Numbered from the stretch's first letter, positions 1-11,274 are shown. The stretch is 64,000 nucleotides of DNA from Gammaproteobacteria bacterium (GCA_003250975.1 QKIY01000016.1:84-64083), one strand, 5' to 3'. Notes: generated from the sequence alone by a model not told the origin. Numbers and translations are program-made.

Positions 1-2336
1 CAAAATTTCTGCCACATCTGGCGATATTCTGTCTCTATTGAGCTTGCGATGCGCTTGGCATCGGTCAGGGGTGAAGCTTTCATACACTTACGCAATGACT
101 TCCGCAACTCTATCAGTCGCTCCTCGTTTGCAGCTAACTCAATAGCCTTTTGAATATACTCTTCAGGACTTTCTGCAATCAATTCTGATAATTTTGCAGA
201 ATGAAGCAGGCTTGTACCCACCCGAGAGAGATGAAGAGGACCTGCTAGCGTGATCACCGGTACACCCATCCAGAGTGCTTCGCAGGTTGTTGCAGTACCA
301 TTATAGGGAAAGGTATCTAGCGCTACGTCGAGTTCTTTATATAAGGAGAGGTGATCAAGTGTACTTGGTAACTTGTTATACAACTTGATTCTTTTTGGAT
401 CAATGCCATGAGTTTCAAATTCTTTAATTATGCGTTTGTCTCCATCTTCTAATCCCCTTGATTTTAACAGTAGTTTACTATTAGAAACTTTTTTTAGGAT
501 TGAGATCCAGTGGCGAATAATAGTCGGACTTACTTTGGCAAAATTGTTGAAAGAACCAAATGTGACATAGTCATTTTTCCTCATAGGCGAAGGACTGATT
601 TCAGGACAAATCGATGGCGGTTGGTAGCAAAGGAAGCCATTGGGTAGTCTAATCAGTTGTTCAGTATAATACTGATCAGTCTGTCCGGGTGGATCAGCCC
701 ACTCATCGGTGAAGCGATAGTCCATTTCATCAATACCTGTAGTATCTGGATAGCCAAGGTAGGTGATTTGGATTGGTGCCGGTTTGCGAGCAAACAGTGG
801 TATGCGATTATGTCCGGTATGACCTGATAGGTCGACCAGTATGTCTATCGCATTTGACTGAATCAACGTAGTCGCTTGTTCATCGTCTAAACCCCGGATA
901 TCATACCAGCCATCAGTATGATGCCGAATTCTCATAGTAGTATCGTCATTGTTTGGATTGTTGCTAAAACAAATCACTTCTAACATGTTAGAATCATGTG
1001 CGGCGAGCAAAGGTTCAAAGAAATAAGACACAGAATGAGTTCTGAGATCTCCTGACACATAGCCTATACGTAGACGCCTATTGGCATCAGTACTGCTTAT
1101 TTTAAAGGACCTGGTGTTTACTGCGGTTGAAGTATGGTATTGTGCCCAATGAATATGCTCTTGAAAAATTACTTTTGCATTTAAGGGTTCAGTATAGTGT
1201 AGGGAGAATAGCACATTACTGTGAATATCAGCTCTGGATGGGTCTAAATCCAATGCCCGTCGAAAAGACACAATAGCATCTTCAATGCGCCCTATATCTT
1301 TGAGTGCACATCCTAATATGTTATGGCTATCTGCTTTGCAATTGTCAATTTGGATTGATCGCTGACATGTATCAATTGCTTCATTAATTTGACCTAATGC
1401 CCGTAATACTCGGGCCAGTGTATTTAGGGCAAGAGCATTATTTGGAGCTAACTTTACAGCATGCCTAGCAATTTTAAGTGCCTCATCCAGTTTGCTGTTT
1501 TTCAGCAACGCAGATGCAAGTACTATGTATGCCTTGACATTGGTTGGATCAAGCTCAATGATTTTCCTCGCTGAATCAATTGCTTCTTTCAATTTACCGA
1601 GTGTAGTAAGAGCAGTAACCAAATGTATGTGGGCATTCAAAAAGTCAGATTTAAGTCTTATCGCACGCTTAAAGCACTCTGAAGCATATTCGTGTCTACC
1701 TTGGTTACCAAAAATAGTACCGAGACTATCGTAATAACGTGGATCTTCTGGAGATATCGTTAAAGCGCGATATATATGTTTGATAGCAGCAAGATGATCA
1801 CCAAGTTCCCCGGCGACCATTCCTAGTAAGTGCCATGCCTCAGCAAAACCTGGACGTATATCTAGGATTTCTAGACACGCCAATTCAGCCTTATCAAGTT
1901 CAGCAGCGTGAAAGTGTTCTATAGCCTTATTGTAAAGTTTGTCGCACGCACTGGTGAGTTTGTTTAAGACATCAATATCACCGGGTCGTAAATTAAGAGT
2001 TTCATTAAATGACTTAATTGCATCTATTATCTGACCTTCATCTAGTAAAGCATTACCTAAATTGAAATGAAATAATGCCTCGTGAGGATTAATCGCAATC
2101 GCTTGCTTAATTAGAGTTCTGGCGTCTTTGAAATTCTTTCGATTAGCCGCTACTACACCACTCAAGTGCAAAGCATCGACATTTTCTGGATCATGCTCCA
2201 GTATTTGATTAAAACATTTCATTGCTTCATCGAAACGGCCTGCCTTACTGTGCTCAATACCTTCATCAAGAAGCTTACGAGTCATACTAGCGTCATTGCT
2301 ATGATCGTTTAAATTAGGGTCATATTTTCGATTCAT
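1..2336 (-). CDS. TPR-containing O-linked glycosyltransferase, GT41 / SPINDLY-OGT family (3' end runs off the window, close to its C-terminus)
   Basis: Missing from the ORF track because it is open at the edge. Hand translation from ATG 2336 gives MNRKYDPNL..., a run of TPRs, then RLRIGYVSGDLRTHSVSYF, DILVDLSGHTGHNR, PAPIQITYLGYPDTTG, TFGSFNNFAK, LDTFPYNGTATTCEALWMGVPVITLAG and EYRQMWQKF at the edge; all are SPINDLY-family motifs. Confidence 0.93.
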   Translation of the reverse strand, partial: MNRKYDPNLNDHSNDASMTRKLLDEGIEHSKAGRFDEAMKCFNQILEHDPENVDALHLSGVVAANRKNFKDARTLIKQAIAINPHEALFHFNLGNALLDEGQIIDAIKSFNETLNLRPGDIDVLNKLTSACDKLYNKAIEHFHAAELDKAELACLEILDIRPGFAEAWHLLGMVAGELGDHLAAIKHIYRALTISPEDPRYYDSLGTIFGNQGRHEYASECFKRAIRLKSDFLNAHIHLVTALTTLGKLKEAIDSARKIIELDPTNVKAYIVLASALLKNSKLDEALKIARHAVKLAPNNALALNTLARVLRALGQINEAIDTCQRSIQIDNCKADSHNILGCALKDIGRIEDAIVSFRRALDLDPSRADIHSNVLFSLHYTEPLNAKVIFQEHIHWAQYHTSTAVNTRSFKISSTDANRRLRIGYVSGDLRTHSVSYFFEPLLAAHDSNMLEVICFSNNPNNDDTTMRIRHHTDGWYDIRGLDDEQATTLIQSNAIDILVDLSGHTGHNRIPLFARKPAPIQITYLGYPDTTGIDEMDYRFTDEWADPPGQTDQYYTEQLIRLPNGFLCYQPPSICPEISPSPMRKNDYVTFGSFNNFAKVSPTIIRHWISILKKVSNSKLLLKSRGLEDGDKRIIKEFETHGIDPKRIKLYNKLPSTLDHLSLYKELDVALDTFPYNGTATTCEALWMGVPVITLAGPLHLSRVGTSLLHSAKLSELIAESPEEYIQKAIELAANEERLIELRKSLRKCMKASPLTDAKRIASSIETEYRQMWQKF

Positions 2337-2454
2337 ATTCGTATAATCTAAATAAATAATTCTTATGTAAAAAATAAATTAAAATCACTTAACTAATAAT
2401 GAAAGGCCCCTCTTCATAAAATAATATAAGACTAATTCAGGATCGCTACTAAAT

Positions 2455-3096
2455 TTACGAATATCCTGCTTTACGCAAGATTTCACCGTTTATTTTCTCA
2501 AATATCTCAAATAGAGTATCTGTAAACTTAGATTTCCAGTCACTCTTTTTTCTAACCCACCGTCCATCACTTTTAACAATAGTCTCCCTGTCTGGAATAT
2601 TGTGGTTTATTGCTTTTAAGGATAGAAAATTACCAATACTATTTAGAGCACTATCAAGATCAACTATAATATCTTCGTATTTAAGTAAAAGAGTGTTATC
2701 CCGTCTCCAAGGATCCCAAGATTTAACATGATCCGCCCATGTTCCAAAGCGGTGTTGACCTTTGATGACTGCCTCTAAAGTTATCTTTCTGTGATAAAAT
2801 TCCCAAATACTAACGCAAGCAGCTCTGCCATCCCTAATCACATATATAGCAGAATTGTTATCTTTTGAGTGCTCGTGTGTTTTTAATAATGGGATACTGT
2901 TAGCATCGAATCTGATTTTATGATCTGGACCATGCTCTATATGTCCAACATACTCTTCTAATTCTATATTCCCGCCAAGGTCTTTTGGATAGATGCTTGC
3001 AGATCTAAGCCGAAAACATTGCCATAAAATCGTCCTAAGAAATGTATTACCGCTTCTTGGATAAGATGCAAGCCATATAATATCTGAGTTTCTCAT
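2455..3096 (-). CDS. PAPS-dependent sulfotransferase (Sulfotransfer_1 family)
   Basis: 5'-PSB motif WLASYPRSGNTFLR, 3'-PB motif YVIRDGRAACVS, and LLLKYEDI. Confidence 0.88.
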   Translation of the reverse strand: MRNSDIIWLASYPRSGNTFLRTILWQCFRLRSASIYPKDLGGNIELEEYVGHIEHGPDHKIRFDANSIPLLKTHEHSKDNNSAIYVIRDGRAACVSIWEFYHRKITLEAVIKGQHRFGTWADHVKSWDPWRRDNTLLLKYEDIIVDLDSALNSIGNFLSLKAINHNIPDRETIVKSDGRWVRKKSDWKSKFTDTLFEIFEKINGEILRKAGYS

Positions 3097-3552
3097 TTAC
3101 TGATTTTATAATTGAGCAATTTTTAGTTCATGTATGAACCATGGTGTTCTGAAATTATTTGATAAAATTTTAGAGTATTGAATTATCCTTGAGAAAATGA
3201 ACTGGTTCACATTTGATTTAATGATATCAGATAGTTAGAAAAATGACGTGTTTCACATTTGTAACAATTAATTTTGGTTAAAAATCTGAATATGTAATAA
3301 ACCTAAAATTTATGCATTTAAATCAGTAAGTTATATATACCTTCTTTGTGGGTATTGTATTATCTATTAAACACTTCTTGTGAGTGATTCAATGTAACTC
3401 ATTGATTAACTACTCTCTCCCCAGACGTTGATTTTCTAAACGGTAATAAAAGAATTTAGCTTCAATCAAATTTAATCGGGTAATGACATGGAATGTCAGG
3501 TTGCAGGGATAAGTAACCAGCCCGAATAATGTTCGAGAGAGAGGGCATTAAA

Positions 3553-5379
3553 ATGATAAACATGAACAGGGCTCGTGATGAGAGACGTGAGCTGTTATTC
3601 AGATTTTGGATTTCCACGGCAAGTATTCTGATTGCAATTGTTTCATTGGTACTGTTTGCTCCGGATACAGCCCTTGCTGCTGGTCAAAGTTCATTTCATA
3701 TCCCGGAAAAATTTGTCAAGAACCGAGTGCTTATCCAGCCTCGTGCAGGTATTACTGAAGAAAAATTCAAAGCGATTATTGAGCAGCATGGTGGTAACGA
3801 GACCTTCGTTATAGATGAATTGGACCTGCATATCATCGAACTCTCCGAGAATGCCAATACGGCGGCTATTGCTGAAGCCTTAAACCGGAATCCCAATATC
3901 AAGTTTGCCGAACTCGATGGCCAAGTGTCCCCCGAGCTTATTCCCGATGACCCGCAGTATCCGTATGGTTGGCACCTTCCACAAATTGGAGCGACGAGTG
4001 CATGGGATTCAGCACAGGGAGATGGTGTGATCATAGCCGTGCTGGATACAGGTGTGGATACCTCTCATCCGGATCTGCAAGGACAGACAGTGCCGGGATG
4101 GAATTTTTATGATGGCAATGATGATGTCACAGACGTACATGGGCATGGAACCGCCGTAGCAGGCACAGTCGCAGCCGCTACCAATAACAGCATTGGTGTT
4201 TCATCAGTGAGTTTCAATTCCAGGATCATGCCGATGCGTATTACTGATACGCAAGGTTATGGTTATTACAGTTTGATGGCGCAGGCGATTACGTCTGCTG
4301 CTGATAATAATGCAAAAGTTGCCAATATTAGTTTTTTAAATGTATCTAAAAGTTCTTCCGTCGATGCTGCTGCCCAGTATATGCGTGATAAAGGAGGCAT
4401 AGTTGTTATCTCTGCAGGTAATACTGGCAGCGAACTTACTGATAACCCACCACGCGATTCACTCGTAGTTGTCGCAGCAACAGATGGAAACGATCTTACG
4501 ACAAGCTTTTCCAGTTATGGTGATTTTGTTGATATCGCTGCACCAGGTGTCGGCCTTCGGACTACCTTATCAGGGGGCGGATATGGCGGCTTCAGTGGGA
4601 CATCTGCATCCAGTCCTGTCGTCGCAGGCGTTTATGCACTGGTAATGAGTGCTAATTCATCTCTACAGCCAGCCCAACTTGATAGCATAGTATTTGAGAA
4701 CGCATTGGATCTTGGCAATACAGGCTGGGATCCTCATTATGGCGCTGGGCGTGTCCAGGCGGATATGGCAGTGATTGCTGCAATCGATACCCCTGATACC
4801 GATTTTCTTTCACCAAGTGTATCTATTACTTCACCCATTGGTGGCGTCCTGAAAGGAGAGGTCCCTGTTTATACTTCGTCATCTGATAATATTGCCGTTA
4901 CGGAGGTAGAGCTTTACGTCAACGGCGAATTATACGCCTCTGAAACCTTCGACCCCTTTGAGTTCATTCTGGATACTTCGCAGTACACGGATGGCCAGAT
5001 GCAACTGGAGGCGCGCGCCTATGATGCCTCGGGTAATACAGGTTACTCAGAAATTGTTGATGTAACCGTTGCCAACAACAAAAATCCGCCCGAGGTCACT
5101 ATCCTCGACCCCACTGATGGCAGCGAAGTGAGTGGAACAGTGAATGTCAATGTCAGTGCAAATGACGATGTGGGTGTCACCAGGATCAGCCTGTATATTG
5201 ACGGCAAGGAAGTTATGGCGGTCAATGACAGCACGACGCTTTCCTATAGCTGGAGACCGAAACCTCTACGTGGCAAGGGAAAAAATTCGATACCAAACAG
5301 TACGATGATCTCGGCAACCGCAGAGGATATTGCCGGTAATTCATCAACTGCAGTTGTGAATGTGACCGTCACAAGGTAA
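3553..5379 (+). CDS. Secreted S8 subtilisin-like serine protease with two C-terminal Ig-like (Big) domains
   Basis: Catalytic triad motifs VLDTG, HGHGT and GTSAS; oxyanion SAGN; hydrophobic N-terminal signal ending ALA-A; two Ig-like repeats (SPSVSITSP...YDASGN, PPEVTILDP...EDIAGN). ATG 3553 chosen over the track start at 3529 because a purine-rich SD precedes it. Confidence 0.92.
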   Translation: MINMNRARDERRELLFRFWISTASILIAIVSLVLFAPDTALAAGQSSFHIPEKFVKNRVLIQPRAGITEEKFKAIIEQHGGNETFVIDELDLHIIELSENANTAAIAEALNRNPNIKFAELDGQVSPELIPDDPQYPYGWHLPQIGATSAWDSAQGDGVIIAVLDTGVDTSHPDLQGQTVPGWNFYDGNDDVTDVHGHGTAVAGTVAAATNNSIGVSSVSFNSRIMPMRITDTQGYGYYSLMAQAITSAADNNAKVANISFLNVSKSSSVDAAAQYMRDKGGIVVISAGNTGSELTDNPPRDSLVVVAATDGNDLTTSFSSYGDFVDIAAPGVGLRTTLSGGGYGGFSGTSASSPVVAGVYALVMSANSSLQPAQLDSIVFENALDLGNTGWDPHYGAGRVQADMAVIAAIDTPDTDFLSPSVSITSPIGGVLKGEVPVYTSSSDNIAVTEVELYVNGELYASETFDPFEFILDTSQYTDGQMQLEARAYDASGNTGYSEIVDVTVANNKNPPEVTILDPTDGSEVSGTVNVNVSANDDVGVTRISLYIDGKEVMAVNDSTTLSYSWRPKPLRGKGKNSIPNSTMISATAEDIAGNSSTAVVNVTVTR

Positions 5380-5641: not shown

Positions 5642-7378
5642 ATGGCACACAATATCCCGGTTTCTCGGCCCTCTTTGCGCGAGTTTACTTCACGCTTCCG
5701 GCCTTATTTTGTTTCAGCGGCTGTCTTCAGTCTGCTGGTCAATCTACTGATGCTGGTGCCGGCGCTTTTCATGATCCAGGTGTTTGACCGGGTGGTGACC
5801 AGCCGGAGTACCGAGACACTGATCATGTTGCTGGTAATAGCTATTGGTGCGCTGCTGTTTATGGCTTTCCTTGATGTGATCCGTGCGCGGCTTCTGACTG
5901 CTGCTGCGGTCTCACTGGAGAGGCATCTTGGCCCCCGGGTGCTAGCCGATATGATCCGCAATAACGCCGGTCCTGAGGGTGGAAAGAACCTGAATGGACT
6001 CCGTGATGTGAACTCGCTCCGGGGGTTTCTGACAGGCCCGGGAATTATCGCGTTGTTCGATTCCCCGTGGGTGCCGATCTATGTCCTGATTATCTACCTG
6101 TTCCATCCGATACTGGGTTGGGTAGCAATTGGCGGTGCATTTATCATGCTGACATTAGCGATTCTGAATGAAAAACTCTCGCGTCAGCCGCTGGAGGCCA
6201 TGCAGCTTGAATCTCGCAAAGCTGGACGCTTTGCTGATCAAAGTATTGCCAATGCCGAGGTCGCACGGACACTCGGTATGGTCGACAATTTGGCGCGTGG
6301 CTGGCAAGGGTTCAGTCGCAGCGGTCTGGAGAAGCAGCTGCAGGCAAGCCGCATCGGTAGCGTACTTACCAGTACTACGCGCCTCACGCGACAGTCCTTG
6401 CAGGTGATCATGCTGGCAACTGGGGCGTGGCTGGTTATCCATCAGGAGGCTACCACGGGTGTGATGATTGCCGCGACAATTTTACTAGGACGTGCGCTTG
6501 CGCCGGTGGAGATGGCGATCGCCGGTTGGAAGGCAATGGTGGAAGCACGCAGCGCTTACGGCCGGCTTGACGAGATGCTGTCTGAGGAGCCCCAGGATGA
6601 AGTGGTTACAGAGTTGCCCACCCCCAGAGGAGATCTGTCGGTAGAGCGGGTTGTGTTCGGATTCGCAGGGCAGGAACGCCCGGTCATAAAACAGGTGTCG
6701 TTTATTCTTCCCGCGGGTGAGTCACTTGCAATTGTAGGCCCTAGTGCAGCGGGCAAATCAACGCTTGCACGCCTGATTGTGGGATTGTGGAAACCCGTGA
6801 TGGGGACGGTACGCCTGGATGGCGCCGACATCGCTGCCTGGCCACGTGCACGCCTGGGCCCCTACATTGGTTATCTGCCGCAAAACGTGGAACTCTTTGC
6901 AGGTACGGTAAGCCAGAACATCGCGCGTATGGGTGAAGTCGATTCAGCAGCGGTGATCGATGCAGCCAAACGGGCCGATGCACATGAGATGATCCTGCGT
7001 CTGCCCCAGGGTTATGATACCTTCATCGGTGAAGGCGGTTCCTTCCTCTCTGCTGGCCAACGCCAGCGAGTAGCCCTTGCACGCGCCCTCTACGGCAAAC
7101 CCTGCCTGGTTGTGCTGGATGAGCCCAATTCTAATCTGGATGGCCAGGGAGAGGCAGCCCTTATCGAGGCAATCCGTCGTATGAAGGCCGCCGGGGTAAC
7201 CCTGATTGTTATTACACACCGCAGCACACTGCTCACTAACATGGACAAGATCCTGCTGTTGCGTGAAGGCGTTATTGAGAAAATCGGACCCGTATCCGAG
7301 CTGATGGCGGGTGCGAATACGCAGCCTGCGGAGACCCGGCCAAACAGAACGGGGCAGGCCAATAAGCTATATTATTAA
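5642..7378 (+). CDS. Type I secretion system ABC permease/ATPase, PrtD/AprD family
   Basis: N-terminal LVNLLMLVPALFMIQVFDRV, FDSPW motif, Walker A GPSAAGKST, signature LSAGQRQR, Walker B LVVLDEPNSNLD. No C39-like domain. Confidence 0.95.
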   Translation: MAHNIPVSRPSLREFTSRFRPYFVSAAVFSLLVNLLMLVPALFMIQVFDRVVTSRSTETLIMLLVIAIGALLFMAFLDVIRARLLTAAAVSLERHLGPRVLADMIRNNAGPEGGKNLNGLRDVNSLRGFLTGPGIIALFDSPWVPIYVLIIYLFHPILGWVAIGGAFIMLTLAILNEKLSRQPLEAMQLESRKAGRFADQSIANAEVARTLGMVDNLARGWQGFSRSGLEKQLQASRIGSVLTSTTRLTRQSLQVIMLATGAWLVIHQEATTGVMIAATILLGRALAPVEMAIAGWKAMVEARSAYGRLDEMLSEEPQDEVVTELPTPRGDLSVERVVFGFAGQERPVIKQVSFILPAGESLAIVGPSAAGKSTLARLIVGLWKPVMGTVRLDGADIAAWPRARLGPYIGYLPQNVELFAGTVSQNIARMGEVDSAAVIDAAKRADAHEMILRLPQGYDTFIGEGGSFLSAGQRQRVALARALYGKPCLVVLDEPNSNLDGQGEAALIEAIRRMKAAGVTLIVITHRSTLLTNMDKILLLREGVIEKIGPVSELMAGANTQPAETRPNRTGQANKLYY

Positions 7379-7404: not shown

Positions 7405-8871
7405 ATGTACGAGTCATTCTACAGATTCCGGGAAAAACCTTTTTCCCTGCTCCCTGACCCCGCGTTCCTTTACCTGGGGAGGCAACACAGTGCGGCGTAT
7501 ACCATGCTGGAGTACGGGATCATGCACCAGCTGGGAATCACTGTTATTACCGGTGAGATTGGATCAGGGAAGACGAGCCTCGTACGTCATCTGCTGAATC
7601 AACTTGATTCCAACTTAACGGTTGGTCTAATCAGTAATACGCACCGCTCACTGGGCGAACTCATGCCCTGGGTTGCTCTCGCATTTGAACTTCCCCACCG
7701 TAACAGGTCCAGGGTTGAATTATATGAAGACTTTGTTCAGTTCTTGATTAAGGAGTATGCCAAGGGAAACAGGACGGTGCTGATCATAGATGAGGCCCAG
7801 AATATGGATACCGAGATGCTGGAAGAATTACGCATGCTGTCCAATATCAATACAGACAAGGACCAGGTCCTGCAATTAATCCTTCTGGGTCAGCCTGAAT
7901 TGCGAGAGAAGCTGCGACAACGAGAACTTGTACAATTTGCGCAACGCGTTGCAGCCAATTATCATCTGGAACCGTTAACTACAGAAGAAACGTGCAATTA
8001 TATTGGTCACCGTATCAGTGTTGCGGGTGGTGACCCTTCCCTGTTTGATGCCCCTGCCTGTGAATTGATCCATGAGCACACTCGCGGCATACCGAGACTC
8101 ATTAATACACTATGCGATATGGCGCTGGTTTATGCTTTTTCGGAACAGAAAGAAAAGATTGATGCAAAGATCCTGGCAGAGGTAGTGAGTGATAAGGTGA
8201 ATGGAGGAGTCTTCCCGTCCGAAGAAAGTGACCAACAAGAGGTGAATGAATTCTGGCCACGAGATCCTCAATTGGCCAAGAGCCTGAATAATATTGCCAA
8301 TGTATATCGCTCACAGGGAAAATTTGATGAGGCCGAAGAAAATTATAAGCGCGCTGTGGGAATTCTGGAAAACAGTGTAGGAGCACAACACCCCAATCTG
8401 GCCACCGTATTAAATAACCTGGCTGTGCTTTATCGCAAGCAACGCAAATTCGATGAAGCGGAATCACTCTATCGCCGTGTTTTGAACATTGTCGAAAAGG
8501 CCCTGGGACCGGAACATAGGGCTGTCGCCATGGGGCTCAATAATCTGGCAGTGCTTTATCAGAAGCAGGGCAAGTATAGCGAGGCCGAACCCCTGCAAAA
8601 GCGTGCGTTGGCGATTTTGGAAAAAGTTTTTGGCCCCGACCATCAAGATATCGTTATTCATCTTAAGAACCTTGCAAAACTGCAACGCTATATGGGCAGG
8701 GCTGATGAGGCTGCAGATTACGAGGCGCGGGCTGTCGAGATTGAGAACAGCAAAATCAGGCATAGCCTGAATCCGACAGCAACGCTTTCACAGTCAAATG
8801 AAGCCCCCTCATCAGAAGCGGCCGCTGCACATAAGGGTCTTCACCCTGTGGCGTCTCCAGATAAAAAGTAA
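7405..8871 (+). CDS. ExeA-like AAA_22 ATPase fused to C-terminal TPR repeats
   Basis: MYESFYRFREKPFSLLPDPAFLY start, Walker A GEIGSGKT, Walker B LIIDEAQN, LILLGQPEL, TRGIPRLINTLCD; then four 42-aa TPRs. Confidence 0.9.
   Translation: MYESFYRFREKPFSLLPDPAFLYLGRQHSAAYTMLEYGIMHQLGITVITGEIGSGKTSLVRHLLNQLDSNLTVGLISNTHRSLGELMPWVALAFELPHRNRSRVELYEDFVQFLIKEYAKGNRTVLIIDEAQNMDTEMLEELRMLSNINTDKDQVLQLILLGQPELREKLRQRELVQFAQRVAANYHLEPLTTEETCNYIGHRISVAGGDPSLFDAPACELIHEHTRGIPRLINTLCDMALVYAFSEQKEKIDAKILAEVVSDKVNGGVFPSEESDQQEVNEFWPRDPQLAKSLNNIANVYRSQGKFDEAEENYKRAVGILENSVGAQHPNLATVLNNLAVLYRKQRKFDEAESLYRRVLNIVEKALGPEHRAVAMGLNNLAVLYQKQGKYSEAEPLQKRALAILEKVFGPDHQDIVIHLKNLAKLQRYMGRADEAADYEARAVEIENSKIRHSLNPTATLSQSNEAPSSEAAAAHKGLHPVASPDKK
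8263..8766 (+). repeat. Four tandem 42-aa kinesin-light-chain-type TPR repeats (protein level)
   Basis: DPQLAKSLNNIANVYRSQGKFDEAE, HPNLATVLNNLAVLYRKQRKFDEAE, HRAVAMGLNNLAVLYQKQGKYSEAE, HQDIVIHLKNLAKLQRYMGRADEAA at 42-aa spacing. Confidence 0.9.
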
Positions 8872-8935
8872 CCTCACATATGACATTACCCGACAGTGTT
8901 ATCGCGGCGCATCCATTGACTGGTAAATTGAACAA

Positions 8936-10471
8936 GTGGAACGGATAAAAAAAGCATTGGAATTGGCCCGGCAGGAAAGGCAGGCAAAAGAGGATGATAT
9001 TTCGGCGCCGCAATCGCCGGAAGTAAAAGATGTTGCTGAAACAATGGAGGCGAACGAAACTTCCAGGGATTTTATTCTTGAGGAGCCGGATGATGATTCC
9101 GTGACAGGGGAGATGGGATCAGTACAGCAAAATGCTGCTGCCACCCCACCCGAAGATATATACAGTCCATCGTCTGATATAGAACGTGCCGAAAGCCCCT
9201 GGAAGTTAATCGTCACCGGCTTGCTGGGTGTCATATTACTTATCCTTGTTATCAGTGCCTGGGTTGTCATCGCACCCATTTCAGGCGCTGTCATTGCGCC
9301 GGGCTATGTCAAAGTGGATATGGATCGTAAGACACTACAACATCAGGAAGGGGGTATCGTCGGAGAAATCCTTATCCGGGATGGTAGCAAGGTCACGCCC
9401 GGACAAACGCTCATACTGCTTAAAGATGTGCGTGTTGATGCCAGTAATGAACTGGTACGTACCCAACTAGATGCCGCACTCGCCCAGGCTGCGCGCCTGT
9501 CTGCAGAGCAATCCGGCGAAGACAAAATAACATTTCCAGCAGAACTCACTGAACGCAGTGAGGACCCGCGGGTCGAAGAACTGCTCAAGCGTGAAACAAC
9601 AGTTTTCGGAGTGCGGCGCGAGGCGCTCTCGAACCAGCTTGCATTGATAAAACGCCAGGTGCGTGATACGGAGAAGGAAGTACAGGCACGGTTGGCCCAA
9701 CTCAAGGCCGACGAGGAGACACTCAAGCACCACCGTGAGGAGCTTGAAACCAACAAGGCACTAATCGGCGAGGGATATGTTTCCAAGACGCGTCTTATTG
9801 AGCTGGAGCGTGCCGGTGCGGAATATGAGTCCAGAAATGCAGAAAATCGCGCGGAACTGGCCAGCGCGCAACAGAAAATATCGGATCTGGAGTTGCGTGC
9901 CGAGACCTTGAGGAGTGAATTCCAGCAAGAGGCAACCAATGCACTACGCGAGACCACCGCAACGATCTTCGATCTTAGGGAACGGTTACGACCGGCACAG
10001 GATGCCGAGCAGCGGCAGCGCATCACGGCGCCGATTGCTGGCGAAATTGTGAATCTCAAAATTACCAGTGTAGGCGCGGTGATTGCGCCGCGCGAACCCA
10101 TCCTGGATATCGTACCCGAGAACCCCGATCTGCTGGTAGAGGCGCAAGTGCGCCCCGAGGATATTAGCAATGTCTATACCGATTCCCTTGCAGATGTTCG
10201 GCTTACAGCATTCAAGCGGCGCTGGACACCGATCGTTGAGGGGAAAGTCATTTATATATCGGCCGACCGGCTGATTGACCCGAAAAATGACACGCCTTAT
10301 TACACGGTGCATGTGCGTGTACCGCCCGAAGAGCTGAAGGAGGCGGGTGATCTCAAGTTGCAGGCAGGCATGCCCGCGGAGGTCTTTATCAAGACCGCGC
10401 CACGCAATGCCCTGCAATACCTGCTTGATCCGATCCTGGGCTTCCTGAATCGCTCGTTAAGGGAGCAATAA
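8936..10471 (+). CDS. HlyD/PrtE-family type I secretion membrane fusion protein with an ~85-aa N-terminal extension
   Basis: TM helix, APISGAVIAPG, KTLQHQEGGIV, long coiled coil, ITAPIAGEIV, LQAGMPAEVFI, RNALQYLLDPI. GTG start. Confidence 0.93.
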   Translation: MERIKKALELARQERQAKEDDISAPQSPEVKDVAETMEANETSRDFILEEPDDDSVTGEMGSVQQNAAATPPEDIYSPSSDIERAESPWKLIVTGLLGVILLILVISAWVVIAPISGAVIAPGYVKVDMDRKTLQHQEGGIVGEILIRDGSKVTPGQTLILLKDVRVDASNELVRTQLDAALAQAARLSAEQSGEDKITFPAELTERSEDPRVEELLKRETTVFGVRREALSNQLALIKRQVRDTEKEVQARLAQLKADEETLKHHREELETNKALIGEGYVSKTRLIELERAGAEYESRNAENRAELASAQQKISDLELRAETLRSEFQQEATNALRETTATIFDLRERLRPAQDAEQRQRITAPIAGEIVNLKITSVGAVIAPREPILDIVPENPDLLVEAQVRPEDISNVYTDSLADVRLTAFKRRWTPIVEGKVIYISADRLIDPKNDTPYYTVHVRVPPEELKEAGDLKLQAGMPAEVFIKTAPRNALQYLLDPILGFLNRSLREQ

Positions 10472-10548: not shown

Positions 10549-11274
10549 TCAACGGAGTTTCTGTACCAAGCGTTCAATGTTATCCAGGGAACTCAGGTGG
10601 GCGTAAATCAATTCCATATGGTTTGATTTAACCAGTTCGGATAGCGTGTCGGGTTCAATGGTTTTCAGGCGTTCGCGATTAACGCCCATAAACCCCCTCA
10701 GGGCCAGTTTCTTGCCGTCCTTAAATTCCGCCTTGGCTTGCATGGGCTCGAGAAGGCCTAATTCGTTGATTTTATTACAAAAAGAACTGGTAAACTGAAT
10801 ATGCCCCTGGTACTCCTGGAGGAATTTAATGGCCTGCTGCAGGAGTTCCGATTCCTTGCCGTCATCATCAAACAGTTTTTTGCCCTTGTTTTTGGAATTG
10901 AAACCTTCGTAACCTTCATCGATGCAGACAGCAAATTGGGAGCCGCCTTGAGTTGGGCCAGATGCTAGGATAAACGGGTATCTTCGGATGTAGGCCGGAA
11001 TATAATTTGCCAGCCATTCCCCTTTTTTCCCGACAAAAAGGTTCTCATGGTCTTTAAGGCCCAGTAACGCCACCGGGAAGATCTCGTCGCCCGGCGTTTT
11101 TGCAAATACTATGGGATATTCCTTGGATGCCTTGAGAAACTCAACGGCTGCAATATATACGCTATTGGTTTCTTTGGTGTGTTTGAAATTATCTATCGCC
11201 GAGAGCGACAGATTGCCGTGTTTTTCCTTATTGAGCGGCACGACATTTTTATAAAATAATGGCTGTGTTGTCAT
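10549..11274 (-). CDS. sapC: SapC family protein
   Basis: EFLKASKEYPIVF, FPVALLGL, W..NYIPAYIRRYPFIL, LFDDDGKESELL, MELIYAHLSSL match the SapC family pattern as I recall it. Confidence 0.85.
   Translation of the reverse strand: MTTQPLFYKNVVPLNKEKHGNLSLSAIDNFKHTKETNSVYIAAVEFLKASKEYPIVFAKTPGDEIFPVALLGLKDHENLFVGKKGEWLANYIPAYIRRYPFILASGPTQGGSQFAVCIDEGYEGFNSKNKGKKLFDDDGKESELLQQAIKFLQEYQGHIQFTSSFCNKINELGLLEPMQAKAEFKDGKKLALRGFMGVNRERLKTIEPDTLSELVKSNHMELIYAHLSSLDNIERLVQKLR

Follow-up and report, generated by a model that had tools for sequence, protein, structure and literature searches.

Type I secretion is usually described as the work of a three-protein machine, formed by an ATP-binding cassette (ABC) transporter, a periplasmic adaptor and TolC. 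In the Hly system of E. coli the adaptor HlyD is present in six copies, and its cytoplasmic N-terminus of about 59 residues, with an amphipathic helix and a charged cluster, is needed for substrate-induced TolC recruitment. ATPases of the ExeA/GspA family, whose role is poorly understood, are found in type II secretion and in polysaccharide loci of the PEP-CTERM type; the ExeA-ExeB complex requires the ATPase domain of ExeA (PMC4098917). The present analysis concerns a stretch of 64,000 nucleotides from a Gammaproteobacteria bacterium (GCA_003250975.1, QKIY01000016.1:84-64083), referred to in its entirety as the window, and within it the gene of a type I secretion periplasmic adaptor of the HlyD/PrtE family (8936..10471, + strand, 511 aa), preceded by the gene of an ExeA/GspA-like ATPase (7405-8871, + strand). 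Sequence comparisons give good support to the view that this type I system, with its PrtD-type ABC transporter and HlyD/PrtE adaptor, acquired a two-part accessory module from a polysaccharide-export locus of the Wzz/tyrosine-kinase type. One part would be a soluble AAA+ ATPase of the ExeA/GspA family fused to a tetratricopeptide-repeat (TPR) domain like that of kinesin light chains (KLC) and encoded between the transporter and the adaptor. The other would be a helix of 17 residues that marks partners of this ATPase family and is borne on the cytoplasmic end of the adaptor by an acidic tether of about 70 residues.

The adaptor, its leader and the ATPase gene

The gene order in the window is S8 protease, PrtD-type ABC transporter, ATPase and HlyD, with gaps of 27 nt between the ABC and ATPase genes and of 64 nt between the ATPase and HlyD genes. 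The transporter (5642..7378, + strand) scores 669.3 bits against TIGR01842 (cutoff 510.15). The HlyD protein, encoded in the same gene string and also recognised by Pfam HlyD_3, scores 346.6 bits against TIGR01843 (cutoff 208.65) and thus belongs to the type I adaptor family. The latter match is limited to residues 97-511, and about 88 residues therefore precede the conserved pair P88-W89 and the transmembrane (TM) helix (about residues 91-113, 9206..9274, + strand; the hydrophobic stretch LIVTGLLGVILLILVISAWVVIA of the translation). P88-W89, located just before the TM helix, is invariant across 16 homologues. As some 20 of the 88 residues constitute the native tail, present also in a leaderless sister clade, the true addition amounts to about 67-70 residues.

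The segment preceding P88 comprises a leader helix (residues 1-17, MERIKKALELARQERQA; 8936..8986, + strand), delimited by conservation and by the helix that AlphaFold2 predicts over it, and an acidic, probably disordered linker (residues 18-87; 8987..9196, + strand), recognised by its composition and low predicted local distance difference test (pLDDT) values, the last 20 or so residues of which are the native HlyD tail. AlphaFold2 leaves the linker unstructured. The linker proper (residues 18-86) has 69 residues, among them 20 D/E and four K/R, and a net charge of -16; in orthologues both its length (69-77 residues) and its negative charge (net -6 to -18) are kept. The mean pairwise identity of eight orthologues is 79% in the leader, 32% in the linker and 81% in the periplasmic core, which indicates that the helix is under selection and the sequence of the tether is not. 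Nine leader positions, R3, I4, K5, K6, A7, L10, A11, R12 and R15, are invariant in six aligned HlyDs. In the window the back-translated leader motif has a single match; 100 shuffled versions gave 0, even with two mismatches tolerated. Residues 1-95 alone gave no family in NCBIfam at E up to 10 and nothing in a word-index search (three candidates, none scored), both tools being unsuited to so short a leader and so variable a linker. A candidate kinase remnant in the linker (IYS, compared with ITYSQTR of the kinases) was rejected, as orthologues do not have it.

The HlyD reading frame begins with GTG, four codons past an in-frame TAA at 8924, and the next possible in-frame start is Met37. A weak Shine-Dalgarno-like element, GGTAAA (8922..8927, + strand), recognisable by its resemblance to the consensus only, lies 8 nt before the GTG; it is aligned with GGTGAT in two related loci (L003, L055) and GGTCAT in a third (L045), the element being located 8-9 nt upstream of the GTG. 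Because the GTG is invariant in five related loci, the leader is conserved, and the codon differences that follow the GTG are mostly synonymous changes at third positions, the start and the leader are judged to be genuine. The public call for one homologue, P0007, has 467 aa and skips the leader; the full reading frame on its contig (L003) starts with GTG, reads MDHIKKAIDLARLERE and encodes 513 aa. All HlyD leaders start with GTG (window 8936, L003:9863, L045, L055 and L098), which explains why the gene caller missed the leader of P0007. The kinase leaders described below mostly start with ATG, a difference that may matter for the expression ratio.

The 120 best of 2279 HlyD homologues include five proteins (P0002-P0006; 513-519 aa, with 70-75% identity) in which the N-terminal pattern M[ED]RIKKAI[ED]LAR[LE][EQ]R precedes a variable acidic or Pro-rich linker; nearly all others of these 120 have 437-445 aa and no leader. 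In every leader-bearing HlyD locus inspected (the window, L001/L002, L003-L005, L045 and L055) an AAA_22/TPR gene is located between the ABC and HlyD genes, so that five distinct leader-bearing lineages each have the ATPase-TPR insertion. In five sister loci (L006, L007, L212, L213 and L214) the ABC gene is directly followed by that of HlyD (about 70% identical, 444-445 aa), and neither leader nor ATPase is present; RTX-type (HemolysinCabind) genes are found nearby, and RTX/cadherin-repeat genes take the place of the S8 subtilase. Since all leader-bearing loci have the ATPase and the five sister loci have neither, the leader and the ATPase gene were acquired jointly, and probably a single time. 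Two similar ATPase-HlyD loci, L045 (WVYN01000079.1) and L055 (WVYN01000025.1), come from one metagenome-assembled genome (isolate CS3-C001) and could be paralogues or strain variants.

The first-pass annotation of the window had claimed about 85 extra residues before the TM helix, formed by a leader helix and a very acidic, probably disordered stretch, and a short tail in typical HlyD proteins. These claims are borne out by the invariant GTG and the conservation among orthologues, by the AlphaFold2 helix, the linker charge and its pLDDT of 33-47, and by the native tail of about 20 residues in homologues without the extension. Two findings that it had named as damaging to its reading, a true start near the TM helix and extensions common in PrtE proteins lacking the ATPase, were not seen: the full reading frame was recovered in L003, and the extension is rare among close HlyD relatives and strictly co-occurs with the ATPase gene.

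The ATPase consists of an AAA+ domain of the ExeA/GspA family (residues 1-271; 7405..8217, + strand; AAA_22, E = 2.3e-27), with the Walker A motif GEIGSGKTS and the Walker B motif LIIDEAQN, and a KLC-like TPR domain (about residues 285-452; 8257..8760, + strand; TPR_12, E = 8e-57). The latter matches the TPR chains of KLC1 and KLC2 (E = 2e-53), as it does in Foldseek, and is modelled with pLDDT of 88-94. The AAA+ domain shares 62-67% identity with the ATPases of a very large set, designated "ExeA / PEP-CTERM-associated". Against TIGR03015 (pepcterm_ATPase) the window protein scores 298.4 bits, below the cutoff of 324.5, and is thus a close relative of that family and not a member by NCBI's rule; it is encoded between type I secretion genes and not in an exosortase/PEP-CTERM exopolysaccharide (EPS) locus. 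The model of its AAA+ domain resembles the switch-type AAA+ proteins MuB, TnsC and ORC/Cdc6 (TM-score normalised to target 0.72-0.78), which oligomerise with ATP and recruit partners via short terminal peptides. The sequence relation to them is very weak, and the context here is not DNA-related; a PDB sequence search with the domain found no close relative, the match to MuB having E = 1.5e-4. The C-terminal fusions of ExeA-family ATPases are highly varied (L134, L136, L139, L142, L146, L167, L174 and L189): they include none, TPR (also in the EPS locus L167), FHA (L189), the peptidoglycan-binding domain of the GspA type, a glycosyltransferase-2-like region (L142) and about 430 residues with no Pfam match.

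The helix in polysaccharide-export and type II secretion loci

Three contigs with close relatives of the ATPase encode, in this order, a Poly_export protein, an outer-membrane protein, Wzz, a CbiA/AAA_31 protein of 263-273 aa and the ATPase. Their CbiA/AAA_31 proteins match TIGR03018 (XrtA-associated tyrosine autokinase) over residues of about 65-257 and start with MERIKQALERARAERQ, VERIKQALERARAERQ and MERIKKALELARQSRLQEQE, the last of which matches the window HlyD exactly for 13 residues. TIGR03018 is their best NCBIfam match, with scores under its cutoff, and the TIGR01007 cutoff was passed in one of the two proteins tested; they are therefore called kinase-like here. As to the C-terminal tyrosine cluster of BY-kinases, L010 has YSYQAY at its end, and in L008 and L009 the end has no tyrosines.

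A degenerate back-translation of M[ED]RIK[KQ]A.[ED].AR was scanned through one genome per species of 185,579 species and gave at least 120 matches; our own estimate of chance matches, with uniform base composition, is about 0.2. Among the matches listed, 105 are the N-termini of kinase-like proteins of about 265 aa in Wzz/polysaccharide-export loci, three are HlyDs, all with GTG starts and the ATPase upstream, four are cNMP-binding/coiled-coil proteins, and one is an apparent kinase-ATPase fusion (L022); the remaining seven are kinase-type N-terminal fragments at contig ends or chance matches. Of about 90 loci whose flanks were long enough, at least 76 of the listed kinases have a same-strand gene for one of the closest relatives of the window ATPase (62-67% identical) directly downstream. 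When 1.84 billion representatives were searched exhaustively with a profile built from residues 1-35 of six HlyDs, there were five matches at E ≤ 0.001: three are N-termini of the kinase type, one of them with the sequence MERIKKAIELARLQR, another is a fragment of a HlyD, and the fifth is a repeat protein matched spuriously. The first-pass annotation had given MERIKxALExAR as the way in which stand-alone BY-kinases (CpsD/CapB) of EPS loci begin, often just downstream of an ExeA-like ATPase gene. The statement proved accurate as to the motif, since MERIK[QK]ALE.AR is overwhelmingly found on such kinase-like proteins, one of which shares the first 13 residues of the window HlyD exactly, and the profile search that it proposed retrieved HlyD and kinase-type N-termini alike; it was accurate also as to the adjacency of the two genes, and wrong as to their order, the kinase gene being located immediately upstream.

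The XrtA (PEP-CTERM)-type EPS trio (TIGR03007, TIGR03018, TIGR03015) is a close point of comparison; the EPS-locus matches as well as the window ATPase all remain under the NCBIfam trusted cutoffs. The ATPase domain is 62-67% identical; the kinases begin with the same helix, in which up to 13-15 residues are identical, and continue with a variable linker; and the type I ATPases nest within the ATPase clade of the trio. In the trio the helix belongs to a soluble P-loop kinase, whereas its carrier here is a membrane-anchored type I adaptor. The ATPase gene comes first, the reverse of the order in the trio, the tether is acidic and has three times the length, all type I ATPase copies carry the KLC-like TPR, and the type I locus has no Wzz, export-protein or exosortase genes. 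With the BY-kinases (TIGR01007/TIGR03018) HlyD has only the 17-residue leader in common, as it lacks the P-loop kinase domain.

In a tree rooted on the GspA-type domain the type I ATPases are monophyletic and nested among kinase-linked ATPases. Those nearest to the window type are L010/L089 and L085 (65%), and the kinases encoded beside them start with MERIKKALELAR. Similarity of the leaders is correlated with that of the ATPases (Spearman 0.73 over all pairs, 0.53 within kinases). As the extension is rare among close HlyD relatives, strictly co-occurs with the ATPase and accompanies ATPases nested in the kinase-linked clade, the transfer of both parts from one EPS-type lineage, that of a polysaccharide-export locus, is well supported by these comparisons; in its course the helix would have passed from the upstream neighbour of the ATPase gene to the downstream one. 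The earlier proposal of a docking module moved from polysaccharide export is sustained in its first half by the homology, the joint gain and the nested clade; docking stays an inference, which the comparative data and a modest AlphaFold2 signal favour.

The motif extends beyond these loci. In 80 metagenomic loci retrieved by the ATPase alone (39-62% identity), the leader not being used for their choice, the kinases show a graded series of N-termini: MERIKQALDKAR, MSRIEKALEKAA, MDFIQKAIDKAR and VEKILKALERSQ. True GspA genes (AAA_22, C39-like and PG_binding_1) are followed by a true GspB gene (PF16537), whose product starts with MSFILDALKKSE.ER, continues with a linker of 30-45 residues and reaches a TM helix. 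GspB follows the ATPase gene directly in L177, L178, L181, L183, L184, L186, L192, L193, L196, L198, L208 and L209. The GspB helix, MS[FIY]ILDALKKSE.ER, is conserved and akin to the kinase and HlyD leaders; a literature search found no description of it. A regular expression for the shared core matches 27 of 123 ATPase-adjacent reading frames and one of 713 others (Fisher P = 6e-23), this lone match being a kinase in an ATPase locus. Across 46 fused pairs of ATPase domain and partner leader M1 and A7 never vary, and the conservation of I4 is 90% or higher. HlyD likewise has the N-terminal helix M-x-x-I-x-x-A-L-x-K-[AS] beside an ATPase gene, a feature proposed here and not a curated one.

GspA-GspB (ExeA-ExeB) resembles the window pair in that an AAA_22 gene is directly followed by one for an M-x-x-I-x-x-A-L-x-K helix, a linker, a single TM segment and a periplasmic domain. 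The window HlyD copies GspB in topology and gene order, and the kinase leaders in sequence: its leader is of the kinase type and not of the MSFILDALKKSE type, and the T2SSB homology region (PF16537) is absent, the HlyD periplasmic part taking its place. Unlike GspA, the window ATPase consists of AAA_22 and TPR only, with no TM, C39-like or peptidoglycan-binding domain, and is only 44-47% identical to GspA-type domains. The gspA-gspB pair of E. coli K-12 was set aside as a reference, its GspB having no clear motif.

Proposed docking of the helix and the alternatives

The anatomy of the pair, its conservation, the homology of helix and ATPase to the EPS-locus pair and the joint gain are observed; what the helix does has to be read from them. 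It appears on balance probable that the helix docks on the AAA+ domain, that the adaptor oligomer displays the tethered copies, and that the ATPase-TPR protein is a nucleotide-gated accessory of the transporter. We infer a short docking peptide, together with its binding site and the consequence of binding. The adaptor being oligomeric, several tethered tags would be displayed, which would draw the ATPase-TPR protein to the space under the transporter and raise its concentration there. The ATPase would probably serve as a nucleotide-gated assembly, gating or cargo-recruitment factor and not as a translocation motor, and its TPR domain as a likely receptor for an acidic peptide, be it cargo or the acidic linker itself. 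KLC TPR domains bind acidic cargo peptides, and KLC1 binds the Y-acidic motif of JIP1. The tether is strongly acidic as well, although it has no conserved W-acidic or Y-acidic motif, and its binding by the TPR domain in the manner of KLC is pure conjecture. PPEDIYS in the window tether (9140-9175) is reminiscent of the JIP1 motif; EDIY as a conserved KLC-type Y-acidic motif was rejected, as it is not kept in orthologues.

Co-folding of the helix with the ATPase, proposed in the first-pass annotation, was carried out with AlphaFold2 on one chain joining ATPase residues 1-488 to HlyD residues 1-87, folded twice. Given no alignment, AlphaFold2 left the AAA+ domain unfolded, with pLDDT of 21-43 for residues 1-190, and assigned 77 to the central block of the leader (491-500). 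In the run with 66 ATPase homologues and no leader homologues (full-length HlyDs were left out, as their leaders had been misaligned to column 2) the AAA+ domain reached 93-97 and the leader block 91, with the tether at 33-47. The TPR domain was well folded already in the first run, and the gain of the leader hence coincides with the folding of the AAA+ domain. The co-fold thus yielded a rise in leader pLDDT and no visible contact.

Several observations weigh against docking on the ATPase. The rise in pLDDT is modest evidence, compatible with docking on the AAA+ domain and no proof of it; the fold of the leader was judged by pLDDT only, in runs with the native leader sequence. About 12 of the listed leader-bearing kinases have more than 2 kb of downstream sequence and no ATPase gene in it, and the four cNMP-binding leader proteins have no ExeA-like ATPase within their 8-kb loci, so the helix may have a different partner, or a further one, or act in trans. 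Every leader-bearing kinase also adjoins a Wzz-type gene, and from EPS loci alone the partner of the helix is therefore not assignable. The gain in HlyD is a single evolutionary event, so that the co-occurrence counts are not independent, and GspB of E. coli K-12 starts with MFEFYIAAREQKE, which shows no clear motif.

Part of this evidence would equally suit a general-purpose helix, whose partner is not the ExeA-like ATPase and may be another hub, the membrane or a coiled coil with which it self-associates, and which was carried along with the ATPase gene by shared donor ancestry, the two not interacting directly. Leaders on kinases with no adjacent ATPase gene and on cNMP-binding/coiled-coil proteins in unrelated neighbourhoods, as well as the constant company of Wzz in EPS loci, speak for it. 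It is nonetheless unlikely: the type I locus lacks a Wzz gene and yet keeps the leader at 79% identity alongside the ATPase, the unrelated kinase, GspB and HlyD architectures have only the helix and the ATPase adjacency in common, the invariant R3, K5, K6, R12 and R15 of the six HlyDs fit a protein contact better than membrane binding, and the ExeA-ExeB complex depends on the ATPase domain (PMC4098917). Still less credit is given to an enlarged version of the usual type I adaptor tail with its own substrate sensing and TolC recruitment, beside which the ATPase-TPR protein would have a separate task, such as regulation or the chaperoning of cargo or protease. The N-terminal domain of E. coli HlyD is indeed a cytoplasmic extension with a helix, charged residues and a signalling role, and the acidic linker is specific to the type I version (acidic fraction 0.24, as against 0.09 in kinases). 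No sequence similarity to the E. coli domain is seen, however; the extension here is foreign and tied to an extra ATPase gene, its helix is not HlyD-like and nearly identical to kinase leaders, sister-clade HlyDs with RTX-type genes nearby work with a tail of about 20 residues, and this reading would not account for the strictly joint gain of extension and ATPase. That the whole leader is an annotation artefact, the true start being near the TM helix and the upstream frame open by chance, is hardly credible: the GTG start, the weak Shine-Dalgarno element of the window and the public P0007 call, which starts downstream, would be in keeping with it, but not the invariance of the GTG, the synonymous substitution pattern, the 79% leader identity, the full frame in L003 or the match of the motif to more than 100 independent protein N-termini.

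A broader form of docking is put forward tentatively, as a possibility to which we give clearly less weight than to docking in the window system itself. The M-x-x-I-x-x-A-L-x-K-A helix might be a universal portable docking tag for ExeA/GspA-family ATPases, used on no fewer than three mutually unrelated envelope machines (the type II assembly factor GspB, the kinases of Wzy-type polysaccharide export and the type I adaptor) and perhaps on the cNMP-binding proteins; in type I secretion the tag and its acidic tether might then bring in a KLC-like TPR receptor, gated by ATP, which would select or hold the cargo or else control assembly. If this is true, type I secretion has a fourth, cytoplasmic and nucleotide-dependent component. 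A conserved AAA+/TPR protein tethered via the adaptor would add a regulatory or cargo-handling layer to the machine, and a short motif shared by the partners would offer a handle on what these ATPases recognise in three systems. It would also furnish annotators with a rule by which orphan AAA_22 ATPases can be assigned partners and wrongly called starts, such as that of P0007, put right. A literature search, of incomplete coverage and hence weak evidence of novelty, found no description of the shared motif or of an ExeA-like ATPase as an accessory of a type I system; a search on PEP-CTERM, kinase and ATPase gave nothing on an interaction between helix and ATPase, and one with the motif string gave irrelevant matches only.

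Other carriers of the helix and neighbouring genes

The four cNMP-binding carriers (L017, L019, L036 and L103) are soluble proteins of about 360-400 aa with the start MERIKKALE[QED]AR, a cNMP_binding domain and a long C-terminal coiled coil, as in L036:1906-3084 and L019:3162-4301 (both + strand). The neighbours of their genes are unrelated and encode a GGDEF protein, a methyltransferase and a PQQ dehydrogenase. A kinase-like protein with a tandem leader, MSRIEKALEKAAQIRN and, after 13 further residues, MNKIEKAIEKAAQIRD, is encoded in L180:5018-5962 (+ strand), as expected of a modular short motif. The apparent kinase-ATPase fusion in L022:3410-5527 (+ strand; 705 aa) has an Arg/Pro-rich middle part that reads as out-of-frame, and is likely due to a frameshift or an assembly error; its ATPase has a receiver-like C-terminal extension.

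Promoter and terminator scans of the window gave no signal exceeding shuffles, and an Rfam search found one tRNA and nothing else. No TolC or RTX gene was recognised among the annotated neighbours, the rest of the window not having been searched for them. Upstream of the type I genes the window encodes an S8 subtilase with a Sec-like N-terminal signal (3529..5379, + strand; Pfam Peptidase_S8 and Big_7), which comprises a Fervidolysin-type prodomain and two Big_7 domains and has counterparts in L001 (4349-6172) and L003 (4342-6174). It is syntenic with the ATPase-bearing type I system in every relative inspected, with the same gene order in L001-L005, and could be either a substrate or a processing enzyme of the module. 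Further upstream lie a 213-aa reading frame (2458-3096, - strand), judged sulfotransferase-like by eye, and a large TPR-like protein cut off by the start of the window (3-2378, - strand); in relatives the position upstream of the protease is occupied instead by giant repeat proteins (SdrD_B), whose lengths exceed 1271 and 1636 aa. On the other side a SapC-family gene (10549-11274, - strand) converges on HlyD right after it, and is found also in L001 (11786-12511, - strand) and L002, and not in L003-L005.

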